Below are positions 4,222 through 49,726 of a stretch of 64,000 nt of DNA, piece by piece (position 1 is the first letter of the stretch; each line of letters opens with the position of its first letter). The DNA is from Escherichia coli (lineage in GTDB: Bacteria > Pseudomonadota > Gammaproteobacteria > Enterobacterales > Enterobacteriaceae). The stretch is taken from NCBI RefSeq assembly GCF_044324875.1, contig NZ_CP172185.1, one strand, 5' to 3'. The notes under the pieces are model-generated. The model made no database searches. It was given only the letters and a program-made list of their open reading frames with translations, and was not told the origin of the DNA. The position numbers were made by a program, and so were the translations under genes.

Positions 4222-5034
4222 TCAGATGTAGGAAGGGCGATCGTTTTTCGGTGTATCGCCGAGAGTCGAAAGCACGGTTTTACCGATTTCGCGTGCGGAG
4301 ATGACCGCCTGGCGGACTGCGCCGGAGTCACCCGAGATAATCAGAATGACTTCATTGCTGTAGCTGGTGCCTTGCGCGGGGGAGCTGTATGCCACAACAT
4401 CCACATTGGCGGACTTCAGCGCGGTGTCTGCCATCAGAACACCCACCGCAGCCGGAGCGCCGACAATAACGCCGCAAGCCCGTCCCAGTGGAGCGCCAAA
4501 CGCTTTTTCCAGTGCATAGCTGGCGCGGGCGGTATATTGCAGTTCAAGATGTCCGGCTTCGTTGGCATAGACATCGCCAAAGGTTCGATCGAGTTCTTTC
4601 AGGGCAACTTCAATACCGCGTTTCACGTCGGAAACATCGTTGCCACCTAAGAGGATCAATGAGCCGTGTCCGGCACCGCCTTTAGTATCGCGAGGAAGTT
4701 CAATGCTAATAACTTCAGTATTGGTTGCTTTTACCGCTTCATCAGCGGCCATAATGTGTGGACCTGCGCCAATACGCGCACCCAGAATGCCAATGGAACG
4801 ATAGCGTTTTTCAAGTTTCATTGCGTCCAACAGGGCGCTATCAACGTTCGCAATGACCAGACCTACAGTGTCGCCAATAGCGGTGCCAACAAATTCTGTT
4901 AACGTGCAGCTTTTTTCTGCCATAGCCGTCTCTCGTATTTGATGAGTGGTTTTCGGGAGAACCTCATGCTCTGGCGTCGCTACGCGAGCGATGACCTGCG
5001 CCATGATCTGTTCGACCAGTTCATTGCTGCTCAT
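4222..5034 (-). CDS. pduB: Microcompartment shell protein PduB
   Basis: 270 aa ORF between pduA and pduC; tandem BMC-domain shell protein by sequence and position. Confidence 0.85.
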
Positions 5035-7753: not shown

Positions 7754-7859
7754 AGTAAATGCCAAAAAAAAGGAAGGTTTAAATAAACGCTGGAATGAAT
7801 AATTAACGTTATTTACGTGTTATGGGAAAAGTGAAATCAGCTCATAACATACGCTGACA

Positions 7860-8060
7860 GGTGTGGCACATTTGTGCCAGGGAAGAGGGTGAAAATCCCT
7901 CGCAGCCCCCGCTGCTGTAATGCTGACAAACCCGAAAATGCCACTGATCGCGAGATTGGGAAGGTCGGGTGAGGATGACGCTAAGCCAGAAGACCAGTCT
8001 GTCAGTCAATACCAACAACTTCGGTGGGAAGTGGGTTGCCCGGAAGCGTCCGGTAGAGTA
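7860..8060 (+). ncRNA. Cobalamin (B12) riboswitch-like leader
   Basis: Contains GTGCCAGGGAAGAGGGTGAAAATCCC, GCAGCCCCCGCTGCTGTAA, GCCACTG and a B12-box-like AAGCCAGAAGACCAGTC, all resembling conserved cobalamin-riboswitch segments as in the btuB and cob leaders. Confidence 0.7.
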
Positions 8061-12234: not shown

Positions 12235-12310
12235 TGGCTCCTCTGACTGGACTCGAACCAGTGACATACGGATTAACAGTCCGCCGTTCTACCGACTGAA
12301 CTACAGAGGA
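12235..12310 (-). tRNA. asnV: tRNA-Asn (anticodon GUU)
   Basis: Reverse complement reads TCCTCTGTAGTTCAGTCGGTAGAACGGCGGACTGTTAATCCG...GGTTCGAGTCCAGTCAGAGGAGCCA, the E. coli tRNA-Asn sequence; gene name assigned by position. Confidence 0.95.
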
Positions 12311-12635
12311 ATCGTGTGAACGGGGCGCATATTAATGGCAGTGCATGGTGATGTCAAAGGGTGAAATGCATTTTTTTGTTTGTTTGCTGTCAATTTCAAC
12401 AAAGTGGTGAGCTTTCAATCTTATTGGTAATGAACCATCGTGGTGCATACCCTCCTTTTATGGGGCAGGGGAACGCGACAGCTGATAAAAAGAGCCAATG
12501 ACGAACCTATCATAATCTCTTATTTGACAGTTGGTTAGCTTGTACATCAACGCCAAAATAAAACTGGCAAGCATCTTGCAATCTGGTTGTAAGTAATGGC
12601 GGCACTTGGGCCGATTCTTATAAACCGGAGGCAAC

Positions 12636-13553
12636 ATGAACTTCAGACGCCTGAAATACTTCGTAAAAATTGTAGATATTGGTAGCCTGACCCAGGCTGC
12701 TGAAGTATTGCATATCGCACAACCAGCGCTCAGTCAGCAGGTTGCCACACTGGAAGGTGAGTTAAATCAACAGCTTTTGATTCGCACAAAACGGGGCGTT
12801 ACGCCAACTGACGCCGGAAAAATTCTCTATACCCATGCGCGGGCCATTTTACGTCAGTGTGAGCAGGCCCAACTGGCGGTGCATAACGTTGGTCAGGCAT
12901 TATCGGGGCAAGTCTCGATTGGCTTTGCGCCAGGAACCGCTGCGTCATCCATCACCATGCCCTTATTACAGGCGGTTCGCGCTGAATTCCCGGAGGTCGT
13001 TATCTATCTTCATGAAAATAGCGGTGCAGTGCTTAACGAAAAACTGATAAATCACCAACTCGATATGGCGGTGATTTATGAGCATTCCCCTGTGGCTGGT
13101 GTATCCAGTCAGGCTTTACTGAAAGAAGATCTTTTTCTGGTAGGAACTCAAGATTGCCCGGGGCAAAGCGTTGATGTTAATGCTATTGCGCAAATGAACC
13201 TCTTTCTCCCCAGTGATTACAGTGCTATTAGACTTCGTGTTGATGAGGCTTTTTCCCTACGGCGACTCACGGCAAAAGTCATTGGTGAAATTGAGTCTAT
13301 TGCCACGCTTACCGCAGCGATTGCCAGCGGCATGGGCGTTGCAGTATTACCCGAATCGGCCGCGCGTTCGTTATGTGGCGCAGTAAATGGGTGGATGTCA
13401 CGCATTACCACTCCTTCCATGAGTCTCTCTTTGTCATTAAATTTACCCGCCAGAGCGAACTTATCGCCACAGGCACAGGCAGTGAAAGAGTTGTTAATGT
13501 CAGTGATGAGTTCTCCAGTGATGGAAAAAAGGCAGTGGCAATTGGTGAGCTAA
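12636..13553 (+). CDS. nac: LysR-family nitrogen assimilation control protein
   Basis: 305 aa ORF with N-terminal LysR HTH (MNFRRLKYFVKIVDIGSLTQAAEVLHIAQPALSQQV...). Confidence 0.9.
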   Translation: MNFRRLKYFVKIVDIGSLTQAAEVLHIAQPALSQQVATLEGELNQQLLIRTKRGVTPTDAGKILYTHARAILRQCEQAQLAVHNVGQALSGQVSIGFAPGTAASSITMPLLQAVRAEFPEVVIYLHENSGAVLNEKLINHQLDMAVIYEHSPVAGVSSQALLKEDLFLVGTQDCPGQSVDVNAIAQMNLFLPSDYSAIRLRVDEAFSLRRLTAKVIGEIESIATLTAAIASGMGVAVLPESAARSLCGAVNGWMSRITTPSMSLSLSLNLPARANLSPQAQAVKELLMSVMSSPVMEKRQWQLVS

Positions 13554-13654
13554 GCGTTATATCGGGATGGAATAAGATGCGGGTTTTTATTATTTGTTAT
13601 GCCGGGCATTAGACTTTAACAATAACGGGATATCTGAACTGCCCGGAGTTTACC

Positions 13655-14605
13655 GTGAATTTCCAACAACTAAAGATAATCCGCGAGGCTGCACGTCAGG
13701 ATTACAACCTGACAGAGGTTGCGAATATGCTTTTTACCTCACAGTCAGGCGTCAGCCGTCACATTCGGGAACTGGAGGATGAACTTGGCATCGAAATATT
13801 TGTTCGACGAGGTAAGCGACTGCTGGGCATGACTGAACCGGGCAAAGCATTACTGGTCATTGCAGAACGCATTCTTAATGAAGCCAGTAATGTTCGTCGG
13901 CTTGCAGACCTGTTTACCAACGATACGTCTGGCGTTCTCACTATTGCAACGACGCATACTCAGGCACGTTATAGCTTGCCTGAGGTCATTAAAGCTTTTC
14001 GCGAACTTTTCCCGGAGGTTCGGCTGGAGCTAATCCAGGGTACGCCACAGGAAATTGCGACGTTGTTGCAAAATGGCGAAGCTGATATTGGTATCGCCAG
14101 CGAGCGTTTGAGTAATGACCCGCAGCTCGTCGCCTTCCCGTGGTTTCGTTGGCACCATAGTTTGCTTGTTCCACTCGATCATCCCTTGACGCAAATTACA
14201 CCGTTGACGCTGGAATCAATAGTGAAGTGGCCGTTAATCACTTACCGACAGGGGATTACGGGGCGCTCACGTATTGATGACGCATTTGCCCGCAAAGGTT
14301 TGCTGGCAGATATTGTATTAAGTGCGCAGGATTCTGATGTCATTAAAACCTATGTTGCTCTTGGGCTGGGGATTGGATTAGTTGCCGAACAATCCAGCGG
14401 CGAACAAGAGGAAGAGAATTTAATCCGTCTGGATACGCGGCATCTTTTCGATGCCAATACTGTATGGTTGGGACTGAAGCGAGGGCAACTTCAACGTAAC
14501 TATGTCTGGCGCTTTCTGGAACTTTGTAATGCAGGACTGTCAGTTGAGGATATCAAGCGCCAGGTGATGGAGAACAGTGAAGAGGAAATTGATTATCAGA
14601 TATAG
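13655..14605 (+). CDS. cbl: LysR-family regulator Cbl
   Basis: 316 aa ORF MNFQQLKIIREAARQDYNLTEVANMLFTSQSGVSRHIRELE...; CysB-like, adjacent to nac as in E. coli. Confidence 0.9.
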   Translation: MNFQQLKIIREAARQDYNLTEVANMLFTSQSGVSRHIRELEDELGIEIFVRRGKRLLGMTEPGKALLVIAERILNEASNVRRLADLFTNDTSGVLTIATTHTQARYSLPEVIKAFRELFPEVRLELIQGTPQEIATLLQNGEADIGIASERLSNDPQLVAFPWFRWHHSLLVPLDHPLTQITPLTLESIVKWPLITYRQGITGRSRIDDAFARKGLLADIVLSAQDSDVIKTYVALGLGIGLVAEQSSGEQEEENLIRLDTRHLFDANTVWLGLKRGQLQRNYVWRFLELCNAGLSVEDIKRQVMENSEEEIDYQI

Positions 14606-14606
14606 C

Positions 14607-14634
14607 AAAAAGCCCGCTATAAAAGCGGGCTTTT
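14607..14634. terminator. Intrinsic terminator hairpin after cbl
   Basis: AAAAAGCCCGC-TATAAA-GCGGGCTTTT immediately after the cbl stop. Confidence 0.6.
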
Positions 14635-14642
14635 CAGAAATT

Positions 14643-14718
14643 TGGCTCCTCTGACTGGACTCGAACCAGTGACATACGGATTAACAGTCCGCCGTTCTAC
14701 CGACTGAACTACAGAGGA
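14643..14718 (-). tRNA. asnU: tRNA-Asn (anticodon GUU)
   Basis: Same 76-nt tRNA-Asn sequence on the minus strand. Confidence 0.95.
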
Positions 14719-14878
14719 ATCGCTGTTGAGGCACATCTTAACGGCGAAAAATCTTTTGTCAAACCCGATTTTTAAATTTCCCAACTGTTTGCCGTTTCTA
14801 TCAACAGTTTGTTGCATTTGCAGACAATTTGTTGGCGAAAATCTTTGCAGCTTTGCTGATTCTCCCTCATTATTTGAA

Positions 14879-16366
14879 ATGTGGTTTCACTTTCTGCAAT
14901 TAAGGTCGGCTTTGAATATCTCCTCTGCTTTACGCCAGGTTGTTCACGGCACTCGCTGGCACGCCAAACGCAAGAGTTACAAAGTGTTGTTCTGGCGCGA
15001 GATAACCCCGCTTGCTGTTCCTATCTTCATGGAGAACGCCTGTGTCCTGTTGATGGGTGTCCTGAGCACTTTTCTGGTCAGCTGGCTGGGAAAAGATGCG
15101 ATGGCCGGCGTGGGATTGGCGGACAGCTTCAATATGGTCATTATGGCATTTTTTGCGGCTATCGATCTTGGTACCACTGTCGTTGTGGCATTTAGTCTCG
15201 GTAAGCGGGATCGACGACGAGCGAGGGTGGCGACGCGGCAGTCATTGGTGATCATGACGTTGTTTGCCGTGCTGTTGGCAACGCTTATTCATCATTTTGG
15301 CGAACAAATTATTGATTTCGTTGCGGGTGATGCCACGACAGAAGTTAAAGCACTGGCGTTGACTTATCTGGAGCTGACGGTACTCAGTTATCCAGCAGCT
15401 GCCATCACTTTGATTGGTAGTGGTGCACTTCGTGGTGCAGGGAATACGAAAATACCGCTACTGATTAACGGTAGCCTGAATATTCTTAATATTATTATTA
15501 GCGGCATATTGATTTACGGCCTTTTCTCCTGGCCGGGACTGGGATTTGTCGGGGCTGGGTTGGGTTTAACCATTTCTCGTTATATTGGCGCAGTGGCAAT
15601 TTTGTGGGTGCTGGCGATTGGTTTTAATCCTGCGCTAAGGATTTCGTTAAAGAGCTATTTTAAACCGCTGAATTTTAGCATTATCTGGGAAGTCATGGGG
15701 ATTGGTATTCCAGCAAGTGTCGAATCAGTATTATTTACCAGTGGTCGGTTATTAACCCAAATGTTCGTTGCCGGGATGGGGACCAGTGTTATTGCCGGAA
15801 ATTTTATCGCGTTTTCAATTGCGGCTCTTATCAACTTACCCGGAAGTGCGCTCGGCTCTGCTTCTACGATCATTACAGGCCGAAGGTTGGGAGTAGGGCA
15901 GATAGCGCAAGCAGAGATTCAGTTGCGGCATGTGTTCTGGCTGTCCACTCTTGGATTAACGGCCATCGCCTGGCTAACGGCTCCCTTTGCCGGGGTTATG
16001 GCATCGTTTTACACCCAGGATCCACAGGTTAAACATGTCGTTGTGATTCTGATTTGGCTAAATGCTTTATTTATGCCTATTTGGTCTGCCTCATGGGTGC
16101 TACCCGCTGGATTTAAGGGTGCTCGCGATGCACGTTACGCCATGTGGGTTTCTATGTTGAGCATGTGGGGTTGCCGGGTTGTAGTCGGTTATGTGCTGGG
16201 AATCATGCTTGGCTGGGGTGTGGTTGGTGTCTGGATGGGAATGTTTGCCGACTGGGCTGTGCGGGCCGTGCTGTTTTACTGGCGAATGGTTACTGGACGT
16301 TGGCTGTGGAAATATCCTCGACCTGAGCCGCAAAAGTGTGAAAAAAAGCCAGTTGTGTCGGAATAA
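14879..16366 (+). CDS. yeeO: MATE-family efflux transporter
   Basis: ORF track frame 14726..16366; start moved to an internal Met to give the roughly 495 aa I recall for YeeO; many transmembrane segments. Confidence 0.85.
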   Translation: MWFHFLQLRSALNISSALRQVVHGTRWHAKRKSYKVLFWREITPLAVPIFMENACVLLMGVLSTFLVSWLGKDAMAGVGLADSFNMVIMAFFAAIDLGTTVVVAFSLGKRDRRRARVATRQSLVIMTLFAVLLATLIHHFGEQIIDFVAGDATTEVKALALTYLELTVLSYPAAAITLIGSGALRGAGNTKIPLLINGSLNILNIIISGILIYGLFSWPGLGFVGAGLGLTISRYIGAVAILWVLAIGFNPALRISLKSYFKPLNFSIIWEVMGIGIPASVESVLFTSGRLLTQMFVAGMGTSVIAGNFIAFSIAALINLPGSALGSASTIITGRRLGVGQIAQAEIQLRHVFWLSTLGLTAIAWLTAPFAGVMASFYTQDPQVKHVVVILIWLNALFMPIWSASWVLPAGFKGARDARYAMWVSMLSMWGCRVVVGYVLGIMLGWGVVGVWMGMFADWAVRAVLFYWRMVTGRWLWKYPRPEPQKCEKKPVVSE

Positions 16367-16466
16367 ACGACAAAGTGCAGATTATTTCAGCAAACGATTT
16401 CAAATTTAAAAAACAGGCTTTGACATTGTGGATGAGCGTCGCTAATATTCGCCTCGTTCTCACGAT

Positions 16467-16542
16467 TCCTCTGTAGTTCAGTCGGTAGAACGGCGGACTG
16501 TTAATCCGTATGTCACTGGTTCGAGTCCAGTCAGAGGAGCCA
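16467..16542 (+). tRNA. asnW: tRNA-Asn (anticodon GUU)
   Basis: Plus-strand TCCTCTGTAGTTCAGTCGGTAGAACGGCGGACTGTTAATCCGTATGTCACTGGTTCGAGTCCAGTCAGAGGAGCCA. Confidence 0.95.
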
Positions 16543-31801: not shown

Positions 31802-31877
31802 TGGCTCCTCTGACTGGACTCGAACCAGTGACATACGGATTAACAGTCCGCCGTTCTACCGACTGAACTACAGAGGA
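31802..31877 (-). tRNA. asnT: tRNA-Asn (anticodon GUU)
   Basis: Fourth copy of the identical 76-nt tRNA-Asn sequence, minus strand. Confidence 0.95.
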
Positions 31878-31977
31878 ATCGTGTGAACGGGGCGCATATT
31901 ACTTAGCGGTACCTTGTCTGTCAACACTAAATTTCATAAGTCATTTCAATTGGTTAATTAATCTGCAAAGTTGTTAA

Positions 31978-32775
31978 TTAATGAACATTCGTCGTCGAAA
32001 ACGAGTCTGTATCATTAGCGTGATGCAGTCTCTGCAAAGGATCTTGTTGATAAAATTGGCAGAAACGTTGCCACAATGAAGGGAAACGAGGAGCAAAAAG
32101 TTCTGGGGCGCTAAAGAAATATTCAGAAAGTACGGCAAAACATTCAGCAGGATCACTGGCAGCATAAGCATCAATGCTCGCCGCATTCACGCCAACTAAT
32201 TCGATTTCTTCCTGAATGTTGTTCATTGCAGCATGAAGATCGTGTTCCCAGCCAGCAACCTCACGCAACGGAATAAAGGGAACTCCGCTGGCGCGATCGC
32301 CGTTACGGGTGTCCAGCTTATGAGCGACTTCATGAATAATCAGGTTAAAACCAGAAGCATCAAAAGAATCTTGTATATCCAACCAGTTCAAAACGATAGG
32401 CCCTTGCTGCCAGCTCTGACCTGACTGAACAATACGTTGGTTATGCACCAGACCGATATCGTCTTCCCATTCATCATCGACCACAAATGGCGCAGGATAA
32501 ATTAAGACTTCATGAAAACCATCCAGCCATTCCAGTCCTAACTCCAGAACGGGAAGGCAAAATAGAAGTGCTATCCGGCAGCTTCTTAATGAATCCAGTT
32601 CAAAGCCCTGTAAAGGAACAAGCCGCTTTTGCTGTAAAAAACGTTCGGCAAGAGTGACTAATTTGCTTTGTTCCTGTTCCGTCAGACACGTTAAAAGGGG
32701 GATCGATAGTGCTTCCTGCCAGGGAAGGGCAGTTTGATGTGCTGATTCTTGTACTTTCCAGGGCCACTTAATCAT
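31978..32775 (-). CDS. mtfA: Zinc-dependent peptidase MtfA (Mlc titration factor A)
   Basis: ORF track frame 31978..32814; start at internal MIKWPWK...; HEXXH zinc motif ([10 protein letters not shown]). Confidence 0.9.
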
Positions 32776-32867
32776 CGTTTTGCTCGCAAACTCGTCACTT
32801 GAACAAAATTGCACGGACAGGGACTGTTAAAATGCCAAATTTCCTGGCATCATGGCAACCATCTGAA

Positions 32868-32957
32868 CGGAGAGATGCCGGAGCGGCTGAACGGACCGGT
32901 CTCGAAAACCGGAGTGGGGGCAACTCCACCGGGGGTTCAAATCCCCCTCTCTCCGCC
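32868..32957 (+). tRNA. serU: tRNA-Ser (anticodon CGA)
   Basis: GGAGAGATGCCGGAGCGGCTGAACGGACCGGTCTCGAAAACCGGAGTGGGGGCAACTCCACCGGGGGTTCAAATCCCCCTCTCTCCGCCA: long-variable-arm class II tRNA with anticodon CGA. Confidence 0.9.
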
Positions 32958-33002
32958 AAAATTCAATCACTTATACATCATTAAGTCAGTGACAAAAATC
33001 AC

Positions 33003-37692: not shown

Positions 37693-37861
37693 AATGGCAG
37701 CCTCCACGTTGAGTATTGATAACTCACCACCGAGGCTTTCCACGACCATAATGGTGGTGAGACGTACAGGGGTGGAAATACCGGTCAACGTAGAACCCGG
37801 CCAGCCTTGCGGCTGCCCTGCACGCCCCACCATAATCTGAATGTGGCTGTGCTTCACGCAT

Positions 37862-37886
37862 AAAAAAACCGCCTGAGCGCGGTTGT
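37862..37886 (-). terminator. Intrinsic terminator on the minus strand upstream of rha
   Basis: Minus strand reads AACCGCGCTCAGGCGGTT followed by a U-run (plus strand TAAAAAAACCGCCTGAGCGCGGTT). Confidence 0.45.
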
Positions 37887-38501
37887 GCGCTACGTTTGAC
37901 TTCGGGTTTCCACGCCCGGCACCCGGTTTATGAGGTGCAGGTGCACTATAATTCCACCCGTACTGGTTTTCAATAGCTACATTCAACATTTTCTCTTACC
38001 TTTCATCACCGAAGTGAACTTTGTTGATGCGGTGCCAGGTGCCTCCAGGTGACGTTAACCAGTTAACAATTAACGCCGGATACAGAGAATCCACCCATAA
38101 CTCTGTTTTTGGTTTTAACTGTTCCACGTGCGATCAGCCGCATTCACCACATCACAAAATTCACTTTAAAAAGGGCGGCAGAGCAGTCACGGAGTAAAAC
38201 TGATACCGCAAAACGTCACCAGAAAATTGATAACAGATGGCGTTGCAGCGGGGTTGTCACTCAGGCGCATGGTCAACCTGACAACCCGGTGTCCTCAAGG
38301 GGAAGGGAACCCCGCCATGCTTACCGCCGCGCCATTTCGCGGAGTGCCACAACCGGAAGCGGACGGTCGACGAAAATTTAACGACAGGCTATATATGAAC
38401 CAGCTACCTCGCCGTGCGCTTTCGTGTTGTGTGCCTGCTTTTAACCACGTCAGGCGAGGTGGTATCCTCTGAGGGGTCTGTTACCCGAGAGGAAATTGGT
38501 T

Positions 38502-45215: not shown

Positions 45216-45451
45216 TTTTATGGATCACCTTTCTGATTGATTTCATATTGGCGAGGTGACGGGAGTTAAGTAGAATTGCTGCGGGTGCTTGAGGCTATCT
45301 GCCTCGGGCATGAACACCAACGGCAGATAGAGAAAAGCCCCAGTTAACATTATGCGTCCTGCAAGACGCTTAACATTAATCTGAGGCAGAATCTATGTCT
45401 AGCAAATGTAGGTTAGCCTCTTACGTGCCGAAAGGCAAGGAGAAGCAGGCT

Positions 45452-45607
45452 ATGAAGCAGCAAAAGGCGATGTTAGTCGCCCTGATCGTCATCTGTATTA
45501 CCGTCATTGTGACGGCACTGGTAACGAGGAAAGACCTCTGCGAGGTACGAATCCGAACCGGCCAGACGGAGGTCGCTGTCTTCACAGCTTACGAACCTGA
45601 GGAGTAA
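45452..45607 (+). CDS. hok: Hok/Gef-family type I toxin
   Basis: MKQQKAMLVALIVICITVIVTALVTRKDLCEVRIRTGQTEVAVFTAYEPEE, 51 aa, near-identical to chromosomal Hok/Gef peptides; the ORF track frame extends in-frame upstream to 45395. Confidence 0.8.
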   Translation: MKQQKAMLVALIVICITVIVTALVTRKDLCEVRIRTGQTEVAVFTAYEPEE

Positions 45608-48158: not shown

Positions 48159-48524
48159 ATGACTGAAAGCATAGAATTTGTTTTGCCTTACCCGCCAACG
48201 GTGAACACCTACTGGCGACGTCGTGGCAGCACATATTTTGTATCAAAAGCCGGTGAGCGTTATCGCCGTGATGTGGCGCTCATTGTTCGCCAGCAGCGGC
48301 TGAAGTTAAACCTGTCCGGACGGCTGGCGATAAAGATTATTGCAGAGCCACCGGATAAACGTCGTCGTGACCTGGACAATATCCTGAAAGCACCACTGGA
48401 TGCGCTGACGCATGCCGGACTTCTCATAGACGACGAGCAGTTTGATGAAATCAATATTGTGCGCGGTCAGCGCGTTCCTGGGGGGCGGCTGGGCGTGAAG
48501 ATTTACAAAATTGAGAGTGAGTGA
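48159..48524 (+). CDS. rusA: Holliday junction resolvase RusA
   Basis: 121 aa MTESIEFVLPYPPTVNTYW... with the RusA acidic motif RRRDLDN. Confidence 0.85.
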   Translation: MTESIEFVLPYPPTVNTYWRRRGSTYFVSKAGERYRRDVALIVRQQRLKLNLSGRLAIKIIAEPPDKRRRDLDNILKAPLDALTHAGLLIDDEQFDEINIVRGQRVPGGRLGVKIYKIESE

Positions 48525-49111
48525 TCGTAAATATGATATACCCGGAAATTACAGGCAAAAGCGGCGAGCATTTACGTCTAAAAACGCTGGAAGCCGTCTG
48601 GATCCAGGGGAAATTACGGATGTGGGGGCGTTGGTCGTATATCAGTGGAGGGACTAGCGGTAACATGTTTAACCAACTGCTTGTATCCAGCAAAATTACC
48701 AAAACTGCAATCAACGATGCGCTGCGCCGTATGAAAAAGTCAGGCATTACGAAACCAGAGCTCGAAGCTTATTTGCGCGAAATACTCAACAGTAAAAACA
48801 AAAGTAGTCTGGCGTTTTGCTCGGACGATGAAGGCCTGAAGATTGACGGTGTGATCGCCTCGGTGCTGATGAATAATGATTACCGTTCTCTATACGGTGT
48901 GATTGTTGGCCGGTATCGTCTGCGTAAGAGCAAGTTGCAAATGGCCAATGAGCTTCATATTAAACATCCTGACTGGGCGCTCATTACCTGTCGCCGCCGA
49001 GTTGACACATGGATAAGTTTGGCCGAATCGCTCCTGTACGTTCCACTATGTGATGCGTTTGGCACAAATAGCGACAGATTTAAATTGCAAAGTGAGCAAG
49101 AAAGTGCTTGA
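48521..49111 (+). CDS. Putative late-gene antiterminator (Q-position protein)
   Basis: 196 aa ORF between rusA and the lysis cassette; assignment is positional only. Confidence 0.4.
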   Translation: MIVNMIYPEITGKSGEHLRLKTLEAVWIQGKLRMWGRWSYISGGTSGNMFNQLLVSSKITKTAINDALRRMKKSGITKPELEAYLREILNSKNKSSLAFCSDDEGLKIDGVIASVLMNNDYRSLYGVIVGRYRLRKSKLQMANELHIKHPDWALITCRRRVDTWISLAESLLYVPLCDAFGTNSDRFKLQSEQESA

Positions 49112-49510
49112 ATTGTGATAAGCTCGGGACGAAAAGCGAACTGAGCAACATAATAGTAAGAACCCGCCATTGTGCGGGTTTTTTTGTCTGCACAACAGGT
49201 AAGAGCACTGAACCCGCAGACCTCGCGGAACTGGTGAAAGGTGCCGCGCAGTGCTCTTATCGTTGTGGTGAAGCTCAATGGCGAGCTAGCAGATAGGCGA
49301 CAGTGAAAATACTAGTCATGTATCTGACCGCCGCGCGTACTGCAATCGGCAGCGCACCGATGGAAGCCGGTTCGATTCCGGCCGCCACAACCCAAACTGA
49401 GCCGTAGCCACTGGCTGTCCTGAACTCCTCAGTGATAGTTACGCTGCGGCCTTCTTTTTCCCCTTCCTAATACAAGAACTACGCAATCCGTTACTGGCGG
49501 AGGCGTTGCT

Positions 49511-49726
49511 ATGAAATCCATGGATAAGATAACAACGGGTGTCGCCTATGGCACCTCGGCAGGCAGTGCCGGGTACTGGTTTTTACAGTGGCTTGATCAG
49601 GTTAGTCCGTCACAGTGGGCTGCTATTGGTGTGCTGGGGAGTCTGGCACTGGGCTTTCTGACTTATCTGACGAATCTGTATTTCAAAATTAAAGATGATC
49701 GGCGCAAAGTGGCGCGGGGAGAGTAG
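49511..49726 (+). CDS. Holin (phage 21 S21 pinholin-like, dual-start motif)
   Basis: [71 protein letters not shown], closely matching what I recall of S21 including the Met-Lys-Ser-Met dual start. Confidence 0.85.

Follow-up and report, generated by a model that had tools for sequence, protein, structure and literature searches.

A tRNA-shaped non-coding RNA in the late leader of a lambdoid prophage of Escherichia coli and in other phages of Enterobacterales

The closest described analogue of the RNA reported here is species 1 of phage T4 (rnaC, 139 nt), which, like T4 species 2 (rnaD), is encoded in the T4 tRNA cluster and to which, to our knowledge, no function has been assigned. Other small RNAs, such as C4 of phages P1 and P7, CI of phage P4 and the Y RNA YrlA, borrow tRNA features for maturation or recognition by tRNA enzymes, and C4 and CI are excised from operon leaders. 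Canonical tRNAs (Asn/Thr and Ile/Arg/Thr arrays), called by every tool, are found in the late leaders of lambdoid phages, and the N leader of lambda contains a hairpin that is known as a cis regulator of N translation and is not known to give rise to a trans-acting RNA; according to work ascribed to the Court laboratory, this hairpin is reportedly cleaved by RNase III. Here we describe a non-coding RNA, complete, tRNA-shaped and about 130 nt long (hereafter the element), located on the + strand at positions 49262-49391, or 49262-49394 with the CCA that follows, of a 64,000-nt stretch of an Escherichia chromosome (E. coli contig NZ_CP172185.1, assembly GCF_044324875.1; the window), between the Q-type antiterminator gene and the holin gene of a lambdoid prophage. 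Its 3' end includes the T-arm noticed in the original prediction, which had been made from the letters of the sequence.

The element and T4 rnaC are both phage RNAs of about 130-140 nt, located in or beside a tRNA array and non-decoding, with several arms that end in a canonical T-arm and an acceptor-like strand; neither is in Rfam. They differ in their internal arms, belong to different phage lineages and have no sequence homology; rnaC was the best match of our family covariance model in the T4 tRNA region, with only 16.4 bits compared with 160-176 bits for true members (176 bits for the window copy), and the two are related in kind but not as members of one family. The lambdoid late-leader tRNAs have slot, strand and downstream flank in common with the element, and probably share its processing route, but the element carries a 56-nt extra arm and an odd anticodon-like loop, and received no tRNA call. 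YrlA ends in a Ro-binding stem, whereas the element ends in an acceptor-like stem. The parts of the element, with helices numbered P1 to P6, are the following:

49262-49270, + strand: 5' strand of P1, the acceptor-like closing stem, GTTGTGGTG, paired with 49383-49391
49272-49287, + strand: P2, the D-like arm, AGCUC-AAUGGC-GAGCU, with invariant GG
49289-49343, + strand: inserted arm of 56 nt, with P3 at 49289-49292/49340-49343 and P4 at 49296-49303/49324-49332
49311-49316, + strand: self-complementary hexamer ACUAGU in loop L4, the proposed site of kissing-loop dimerisation
49345-49361, + strand: P5, the anticodon-arm-like hairpin, AUCGG-CAGCGCA-CCGAU, 5 bp with a 7-nt loop
49366-49382, + strand: P6, the T-arm, GCCGG-UUCGAUU-CCGGC
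49383-49391, + strand: 3' strand of P1, CGCCACAAC
49392-49394, + strand: CCA directly 3' of P1, lineage-specific and not a family feature

The 9-bp stem P1 closes a five-way junction formed by the D-like arm, the inserted arm P3-P4, P5, a 4-nt linker (GGAA) and the T-arm; within the inserted arm, an internal loop (AUA / GCGCGUA) joins P3 to P4, which is capped by the 20-nt loop L4. P5, the linker, the T-arm and the 3' strand are arranged exactly as in the 3' half of a class I tRNA, and the inserted arm occupies the place where a tRNA has nucleotide 26. The tRNA-type features include the T-arm and the GG of the D-loop, which interact as judged from covariation, while the departures from a tRNA are the closing stem of 9 bp instead of 7 bp, an A in place of U8, and the extra 56-nt arm. 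The P5 loop CAGCGCA (variants UAGCGCA and CAUCGCA) has an A at position 33, where U33 would be expected, and a C instead of a purine at position 37. The terminal CCA was absent from the Skatevirus-type and Klebsiella-type variants, and was base-paired in the extended stem of the variants found in N leaders.

Selection on this fold was assessed on 86 distinct variants, collected by two pattern scans of IMG/VR, both with patterns that lie within the element, and from other loci that were fetched. Over the six helices, 90.5% of the cells were paired, compared with 78.4 +/- 0.3% in shuffles and 30-44% with slid partners; 29 pairs were changed on both sides, and none of 500 shuffles reached any of the observed measures. 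Paired cells amounted to 97.8% in P1 (double changes in six of nine pairs), 99.1% in the D-arm P2, 88.4% in P3 (both-side changes in three of four pairs), 89.1% in P4 (eight of nine pairs), 99.8% in P5, where the compensatory variants AUCAG/CUGAU, AUAGG/CCUAU and AUUGG/CCAAU were found, and 99.5% in the T-arm P6 (double changes in three of five pairs). A de novo prediction with RNAalifold yielded the identical six helices. G-U pairs were frequent (for example, in 35, 25, 19, 15 and 12 sequences at five pairs), and would become A-C mismatches on the opposite strand, indicating that the selected molecule is the + strand RNA; since the variants differ by single-base indels, no coding frame is conserved. 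We are highly confident that the element is a selected, tRNA-shaped fold of the + strand RNA and represents a family not filed before.

As a single sequence, a 211-nt region folded better than all of 200 shuffles (z = -3.9). The minimum free energy (MFE) structure of the P3/P4 region was not the conserved pairing, and the pairing supported by covariation was adopted. Other candidate pairings were discarded: a CUGC/GCAG mini-hairpin within P5, present in the MFE structure, was broken by variants, and a pairing of the L4 palindrome with the invariant CUAG at the junction between the D-arm and P3 was rejected as this CUAG stays constant while the loop changes. A candidate pseudoknot between GCGCG (49333-49337) and the GCGC of the P5 loop involves two segments that are nearly invariant, with few changes and no co-occurrence among them. 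The 34-aa open reading frame (ORF) at 49303-49407 was ruled out as coding by the 1-nt indels among variants.

Covariation also pointed to a tertiary contact. The GG of the D-loop and the UUCGAYU of the T-loop were invariant, whereas the base preceding the GG (49279, alignment column 30) and a T-loop base (49376, column 129) changed together in all of the variants, being U:U in 47 and C:C in 39; among all column pairs, only two had a higher corrected mutual information. The P3 and P4 types, which lie between these two columns, combine with them in every way, so linkage alone cannot explain this covariation. The result is as expected for the D-loop/T-loop elbow of a tRNA, in which, by counting, 49279 and 49376 would be equivalent to positions 17 and 59 (the T-loop base being 59).

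The hexamer of loop L4 was self-complementary in 86/86 variants, although seven versions were found (ACUAGU, UCUAGA, UCGCGA, UCCGGA, ACCGGU, GCUAGC and, with G-U pairs, UCUGGA); switching from one version to another takes several double substitutions, and UCUGGA resembles a wobble intermediate. Within 600 nt, the hexamer was not consistently repeated across loci. C4 and CI are antisense RNAs that pair with their own operon, and no sign of such pairing was found for the element. Since pairing of a palindrome with itself inside one loop is impossible, intermolecular loop-loop pairing is the simplest reading; on these sequence grounds, we give about even chances to dimerisation of the element through this hexamer, as a kissing homodimer.

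The original prediction had read a T-arm fragment followed by an acceptor-like strand and a CCA-like sequence. The T-arm was as described, with the stem GCCGG at 49366-49370, the loop TTCGATT at 49371-49377 and the return strand CCGGC at 49378-49382. The strand after it is indeed acceptor-like and followed by CCA at 49392-49394, but it is the 9-nt CGCCACAAC (49383-49391), one side of a 9-bp stem. That no full cloverleaf could be built upstream was mistaken, as the missing partner exists (GTTGTGGTG, 49262-49270); the cloverleaf was overlooked because the extra arm separates the D-arm from the anticodon-arm-like hairpin. The remark that lambdoid phages often carry tRNA genes at this position was correct, and one E. 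coli prophage has three true tRNAs directly upstream of the element; out of the three identities offered (a tRNA, a remnant or a tRNA-like structure), only the last one held. The T-arm is real and exceeds a chance match: the T-loop signature GGTTCGANTCC occurred five times in the window, four times within tRNA-Asn genes and once in the element, a 33-fold excess over the 0.15 copies expected from shuffles, and none of 100 shuffles reached five copies.

The tRNA and covariance-model scans proposed at that time as a check returned no tRNA or tRNA-like call at default settings. As a reason for abandoning the prediction this outcome was too strict, and refuting it on such grounds would be wrong, because standard scanners cannot handle the inserted arm. 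ARAGORN at default settings called five tRNAs elsewhere in the window but made no call at the element, either here or in 60 homologous loci. When 80% stringency and introns were allowed, it proposed a 94-nt 'tRNA-Ala(GGC)' with a 38-nt intron over 49263-49394, and the 'anticodon' differed with each relaxed call. In contrast, deleting P4 in silico gave a tRNA call at the default threshold in two of five variants, and deleting the whole P3-P4 arm gave a call in all five at the 90% threshold. Together with weak matches of the family covariance model to true tRNAs (tRNA-Ile, 28 bits), these calls make the element look like a descendant of a tRNA.

Rfam 15 at gathering thresholds had no family at the element, and a permissive scan (E <= 10) over 49100-49520 gave no match to tRNA (RF00005) or tRNA-Sec. 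The only + strand match within 49262-49394 at E <= 10 was tmRNA (RF00023), over 17 nt of the T-arm, with 10.2 bits (E = 0.042; gathering score 47); the remaining matches overlapping this interval were on the opposite strand, sub-threshold and attributable to chance. A tmRNA identity was rejected, given that only the T-arm matches and that the 1-nt indels among variants exclude a conserved tag frame; the tmRNA mode of ARAGORN also gave no call at the element. In the same permissive scan, neither the C4 family (RF01695 clan) nor any other Rfam family reached significance at the element, and the identity as a C4 antisense RNA was discarded, as C4 was matched only at 37750-37837.

The element was present in 92 isolated phage genomes, with 73-99% identity, including HK75, two vB_EcoP phages, Skatevirus and Akiravirus (Skate, seszw, Akira), Pantoea phage PdC23 and the P22-like BIS08P22, as well as in 163 of 5426 complete E. 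coli genomes (about 3%), in which the annotation there was either nothing or 'hypothetical protein'. In a collection with one bacterial genome per species, the true matches were from Enterobacterales (Superficieibacter, Klebsiella pneumoniae), with one exception, and the other matches of that scan were not recovered by the covariance model. The exception, positions 4308-4462 of JAUVQU010000080.1 (L169, a 'Cellvibrionaceae MAG'), was an E. coli-type element with 176 bits, which suggests a mis-binned contig of an enterobacterial phage. The covariance model found no second copy in the window. Spurious features were annotated over the element in ON470589/ON470594, PQ186186, PV340546 and NC_054639, namely a 'polyubiquitin-A' coding sequence (CDS), a 'hypothetical protein' CDS with a ribosome-binding site, and a 58-nt partial 'tRNA-Ser' that spans P5 and the T-arm only. 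Our literature searches retrieved no relevant description of the element.

Clustering of the flanking ORFs revealed no constant neighbour protein, only genes typical of the context (Q, holins, N, CI and RusA). Genes for HNH or other homing endonucleases were located within 3 kb in 19 of 127 loci, and within about 1 kb in several, and may contribute to the spread of the element. The element is kept in every seszw mutant genome found by our search, even in one shortened to about 36 kb; the genome-reduction study of this phage targeted annotated genes (PMC9825161), and this retention is thus uninformative about essentiality. Two of these laboratory-evolved, genome-reduced phages, seszw_220L and 290L (L190 and L191), differ from the wild type (L192) by a C-to-U change at position 395, the first base of the P5 loop, and the resulting change from CAGCGCA to UAGCGCA reproduces a variant that is natural in other phages.

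Three genomic contexts were distinguished. In the first one, the element belongs to the late leader, downstream of Q and ahead of the lysis genes, as in the window, HK75 and the Klebsiella-type lineage; in the E. coli prophage LH50-c, genes for tRNA-Ile, tRNA-Arg and tRNA-Thr are just upstream of it, and in other prophages true tRNAs replace it before the same 3' flank. In the second one, lambda-like phages with the pL, nutL and N of lambda itself carry the element as the interior of the hairpin between nutL and N. There, P1 continues into GGCUUUGGGGUGUG.../...CACACCACCAAAGCU, a stem of about 16 bp with a bulged A, which is the stem that lambda has at this place; it is present in N-leader copies such as L114 and not in the window, where most of the seven flanking column pairs are unpaired; the corresponding helix 1 was paired in 60.6% of cells over the whole alignment, but not in rows of the window type. 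Hence the basal stem of the lambda hairpin is shared by the N-leader copies, which occupy its interior, while the interior of lambda's own hairpin is unrelated and not tRNA-like, and the window copy is in a late leader with a 9-bp stem.

In the third context, the lytic Skatevirus/Akiravirus phages, the element is antisense to the surrounding tail genes, in a unit composed of a strong promoter-like site (TTGACA-17-TAGATT), a long hairpin of the kind described below (hairpin-1), the element, a third long hairpin, a tRNA and an intrinsic terminator; as predicted from its sequence, this unit is an RNA-only operon with a true tRNA. Same-strand true tRNAs follow the element in 5 of 60 loci, and in L140 the tRNA starts 4 nt after P1. 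It is mainly the Skatevirus/Akiravirus context that leads us to favour an RNA gene in its own right, processed and acting in trans, over a leader structure that works in cis only.

The features that surround the element in the window, all on the + strand, are listed below. The gene order is a DUF968/HNH gene, RusA, the Q-type antiterminator, the phage-21-type holin S, a DUF1327 gene and lysozyme.

48521-49111, + strand: Q-type antiterminator gene, matching DUF1133 and Phage_antitermQ
49059-49086, + strand: late-promoter-like site at the pR' position, within the 3' end of the Q-type gene, TTGGCA-16-TAAATT, 9/12 matches
49161-49187, + strand: intrinsic terminator at the tR' position, ending a short leader RNA, AACCCGCCATTGTGCGGGTTTTTTT
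49198-49261, + strand: hairpin-1, with a 13-bp stem (49198-49210/49249-49261; inverted repeat I1), from the MFE fold
49395-49455, + strand: conserved 3' flank of lambdoid late leaders, with homology to 49455 in HK75 and others, and present in lambda
49511-49726, + strand: phage-21-type holin S, the first lysis gene downstream (Pfam Phage_holin_2_1, E = 2e-35)

Outside the N leaders, the element was always preceded by hairpin-1, whose stem is conserved with compensatory changes while its interior is variable, with at least ten unrelated interiors in homologous loci, lambda included (L131, 995-1057); hairpin-1 is thus a 'stem-bounded slot'. An example of covariation in its stem is GGUAAAUCAAUUUAC/GUGAGUUGGUUUAUC in L140, and its interior in L138 holds the T-arm-like GAGTTCGATTCTC. 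Upstream of hairpin-1, CACAAC (49191-49196), which occurs again as a direct repeat at the 3' end of P1, could pair with GUUGUG (49262-49267) of the P1 5' strand, and would then extend hairpin-1 to about 19 bp. So extended, hairpin-1 could be a substrate for RNase III and a co-transcriptional alternative to P1.

The closing stem of the element and its flanks were likewise kept around different interiors in lambda (66 nt; L131, 1058-1150), HK629 (L007, 1580-1715) and E212 (L008), both of about 118 nt, and CUS-3 (about 216 nt; L003, 2079-2312). In HK629 and CUS-3, the GGCUGA of the first hairpin loop is complementary to the UCAGC of the last hairpin loop, a possible Watson-Crick replacement for the contact between D-loop and T-loop. 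The third long hairpin of Skatevirus, 3' of the element, is formed by 13 bp of CTTAACATCCAGC ... GCTGGATGTTAAG (L001, 2626-2712, and the seszw equivalent in L192), and a comparable stem, GCCGUAGC ... GCUGCGGC, is possible in the lambdoid 3' flank, at about 49401-49452 of the window. The whole leader may therefore be a string of stem-bounded domains.

The cobU region of the window is 95-99% identical to E. coli and holds a cobalamin riboswitch, and four tRNA-Asn genes with identical scores and a tRNA-Ser(CGA) gene (32869-32958) adjoin the prophage side; the coordinates given jointly for these tRNA genes and the riboswitch are 12235-16542, 31802-32958 and 7842-8016. The tRNA-Ser(CGA) gene may mark the integration site of the prophage. 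Other RNAs above the Rfam gathering scores in the same prophage were a C4-type antisense RNA (37750-37837), isrK (37862-37938), DicF (38173-38224) and the sok antitoxin RNA (45283-45457).

In HK75, pR' is annotated at the place equivalent to the promoter-like site of the window, and the annotated Tr' is homologous to the window terminator, 3' of which the element sits in a non-coding stretch of about 320 nt. Weak terminator-type Rfam matches were obtained over 49108-49187; the short RNA of this interval also had sub-threshold matches to isrJ and isrK (Hfq-binding RNAs of prophages) and to leader and terminator models, and may be a pR'-tR' small RNA resembling those of other lambdoid prophages. 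One terminator arm (49165-49175) and the D-like arm (49273-49283) show 91% complementarity over 11 nt, and the 3' terminator arm (49173-49180) shows perfect complementarity to the first 8 nt of the hairpin-1 interior (49211-49218). Both complementarities are probably due to chance, since the upstream terminators vary among loci with an identical hairpin-1 interior. The flank at 49395-49455 was also found in prophages with true tRNAs, and follows tRNA-Thr in other E. coli prophages.

The explanation that we favour, with somewhat better than even confidence, is that of a tRNA-derived, non-decoding stable RNA, excised by the tRNA- and rRNA-processing enzymes of the host and acting in trans. A degenerate tRNA would have acquired the 56-nt arm between its D-arm and its anticodon-like arm. 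Host enzymes of tRNA and rRNA maturation would then cut the element out of longer phage transcripts (in the window, the Q-antiterminated late leader), RNase P acting at the tRNA-like body and RNase III wherever the closing stem is long; release by RNase III is plausible for the N-leader copies because they share the basal stem of the lambda hairpin that this enzyme reportedly cleaves. The excised RNA would accumulate as a stable species, and such maturation and accumulation are, from the sequence features, probable. Two copies would pair through the loop hexamer in a kissing dimer, and the element would act in trans as a tRNA mimic on some tRNA-binding factor, with no decoding of codons; that this factor belongs to the host, for instance a tRNA-targeting defence enzyme, is a tentative suggestion that we consider rather unlikely.

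Several considerations weigh against this explanation. The processing, stability, dimerisation and trans action of the element are all inferred, and cleavage by RNase P is an assumption drawn solely from its shape, while cleavage by RNase III is unlikely in the window because P1 has only 9 bp. The stacked helix of P1 and T-stem would be 14 bp long, compared with 12 bp in a tRNA, and this, together with the A in place of U8 and the 4 nt between P5 and the T-stem, means that mimicry may be imperfect. The family is narrow (at least 73% identity, in phages of Enterobacterales only) and its variants are partly related by descent, which inflates the shuffle statistics; the invariance of P2, P5 and the T-loop was partly imposed by the collection patterns within the element, although the second pattern recovered the compensatory P5 variants despite this bias. 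Lastly, in two of its three contexts the element lies in the 5' leader of a regulated operon (that of N or of the lysis genes), so that a role in cis is conceivable.

According to such a cis reading, a serious rival although we regard it as doubtful, the element would be a leader structure for the processing, stability or translation control of the downstream gene (holin or N), operating in the manner of the RNase III hairpin of the lambda N leader, and the excised RNA would be functionless. The location in operon leaders in two of three contexts agrees with it, as do the N-leader copies lying exactly inside the stem of the lambda-type hairpin and the alternative pairing that CACAAC (49191-49196) offers to the P1 5' strand; moreover, the late leaders of lambda, HK629 and CUS-3 share the closing stem and flanks but not the interior, which suggests that the stem-bounded slot matters more than its cargo. 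A mere filler of a stem, however, would need neither strong structural selection on its interior, nor an elbow contact, nor a maintained palindrome; the same core precedes unrelated genes, and the Skatevirus, Akiravirus and seszw copies have a promoter and a terminator of their own, no downstream ORF on the same strand, and only tRNAs transcribed with them. An improbable reading places the function at the DNA level, with the fold incidental, as a recombination boundary sequence, a target or cargo of homing endonucleases, or an attachment-site-like tRNA fragment. The compensatory changes with G-U pairs on one strand only and the non-Watson-Crick covariation between D-loop and T-loop are instead signatures of an RNA, and the element is internal to phage genomes and not at prophage ends, even if its flanks coincide with the annotated boundary sequences bsq3 and bsq4 of CUS-3 and its sequence is near-identical across unrelated phages. 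The homing endonuclease genes located near it in several loci (19/127 within 3 kb) amount to an association of only 15%.

A tRNA pseudogene in decay, or a remnant, would account for the failure of standard tRNA finders, for an anticodon-like loop devoid of U33 and of purine 37, and for the GenBank record with a 58-nt partial 'tRNA-Ser'. Decay would nevertheless bring helix-breaking changes, and this contradicts a pseudogene: every helix was kept by double substitutions in the 86 variants, the loops were invariant or covarying, and even the inserted arm was conserved, making this reading very improbable. The lowest probability of all, hardly above none, was given to a working tRNA that decodes and has either an intron or an unusual architecture, such as that of a class II, Sec-like or suppressor tRNA. 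Neither the window nor the 60 loci gave a call at default thresholds, no Rfam tRNA or tRNA-Sec match was found at E <= 10, and the CCA is not conserved, although it does follow P1 in the window and P1 is long, as in tRNA-Sec. The intron-allowed 'tRNA-Ala(GGC)' call of ARAGORN at 80% would also favour it, but the 'anticodon' changes with each relaxed call, and we know of no small tRNA introns of this kind, nor of an endonuclease for them, in bacteria.

A bolder version of the trans-acting RNA, which we put forward as speculative and consider unlikely, is a class not described before, an RNA 'moron' spreading among the phages of enterobacteria and mimicking tRNA as a homodimer, in which a kissing loop of at least seven specificity types joins two tRNA-shaped bodies. 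If this were true, the dimer could be a decoy for, or an inhibitor of, some tRNA-binding factor of the host, for instance an anti-phage nuclease that targets tRNAs or a toxin that modifies them; alternatively, in N or late leaders, it could sense transcript concentration, that is, genome copy number.

Lambdoid phages are among the best-studied genomes, yet this strongly conserved structured RNA of their late and N leaders is missing from annotations and from Rfam. The element is a candidate for a new RNA family, and accounts for the spurious 'hypothetical protein', 'polyubiquitin-A' and partial 'tRNA-Ser' annotations. Its placement inside a lambda-type RNase III hairpin suggests how phages load extra RNAs into existing processing sites, and its self-complementary loop, kept throughout the variants, would give a small natural RNA homodimer. 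It also provides a second, comparatively tractable case of the stable tRNA-like RNAs of phages, a class known for decades from T4 species 1, the function of which becomes directly testable because the element occurs in easily manipulated phages such as HK75 and seszw/Skate.

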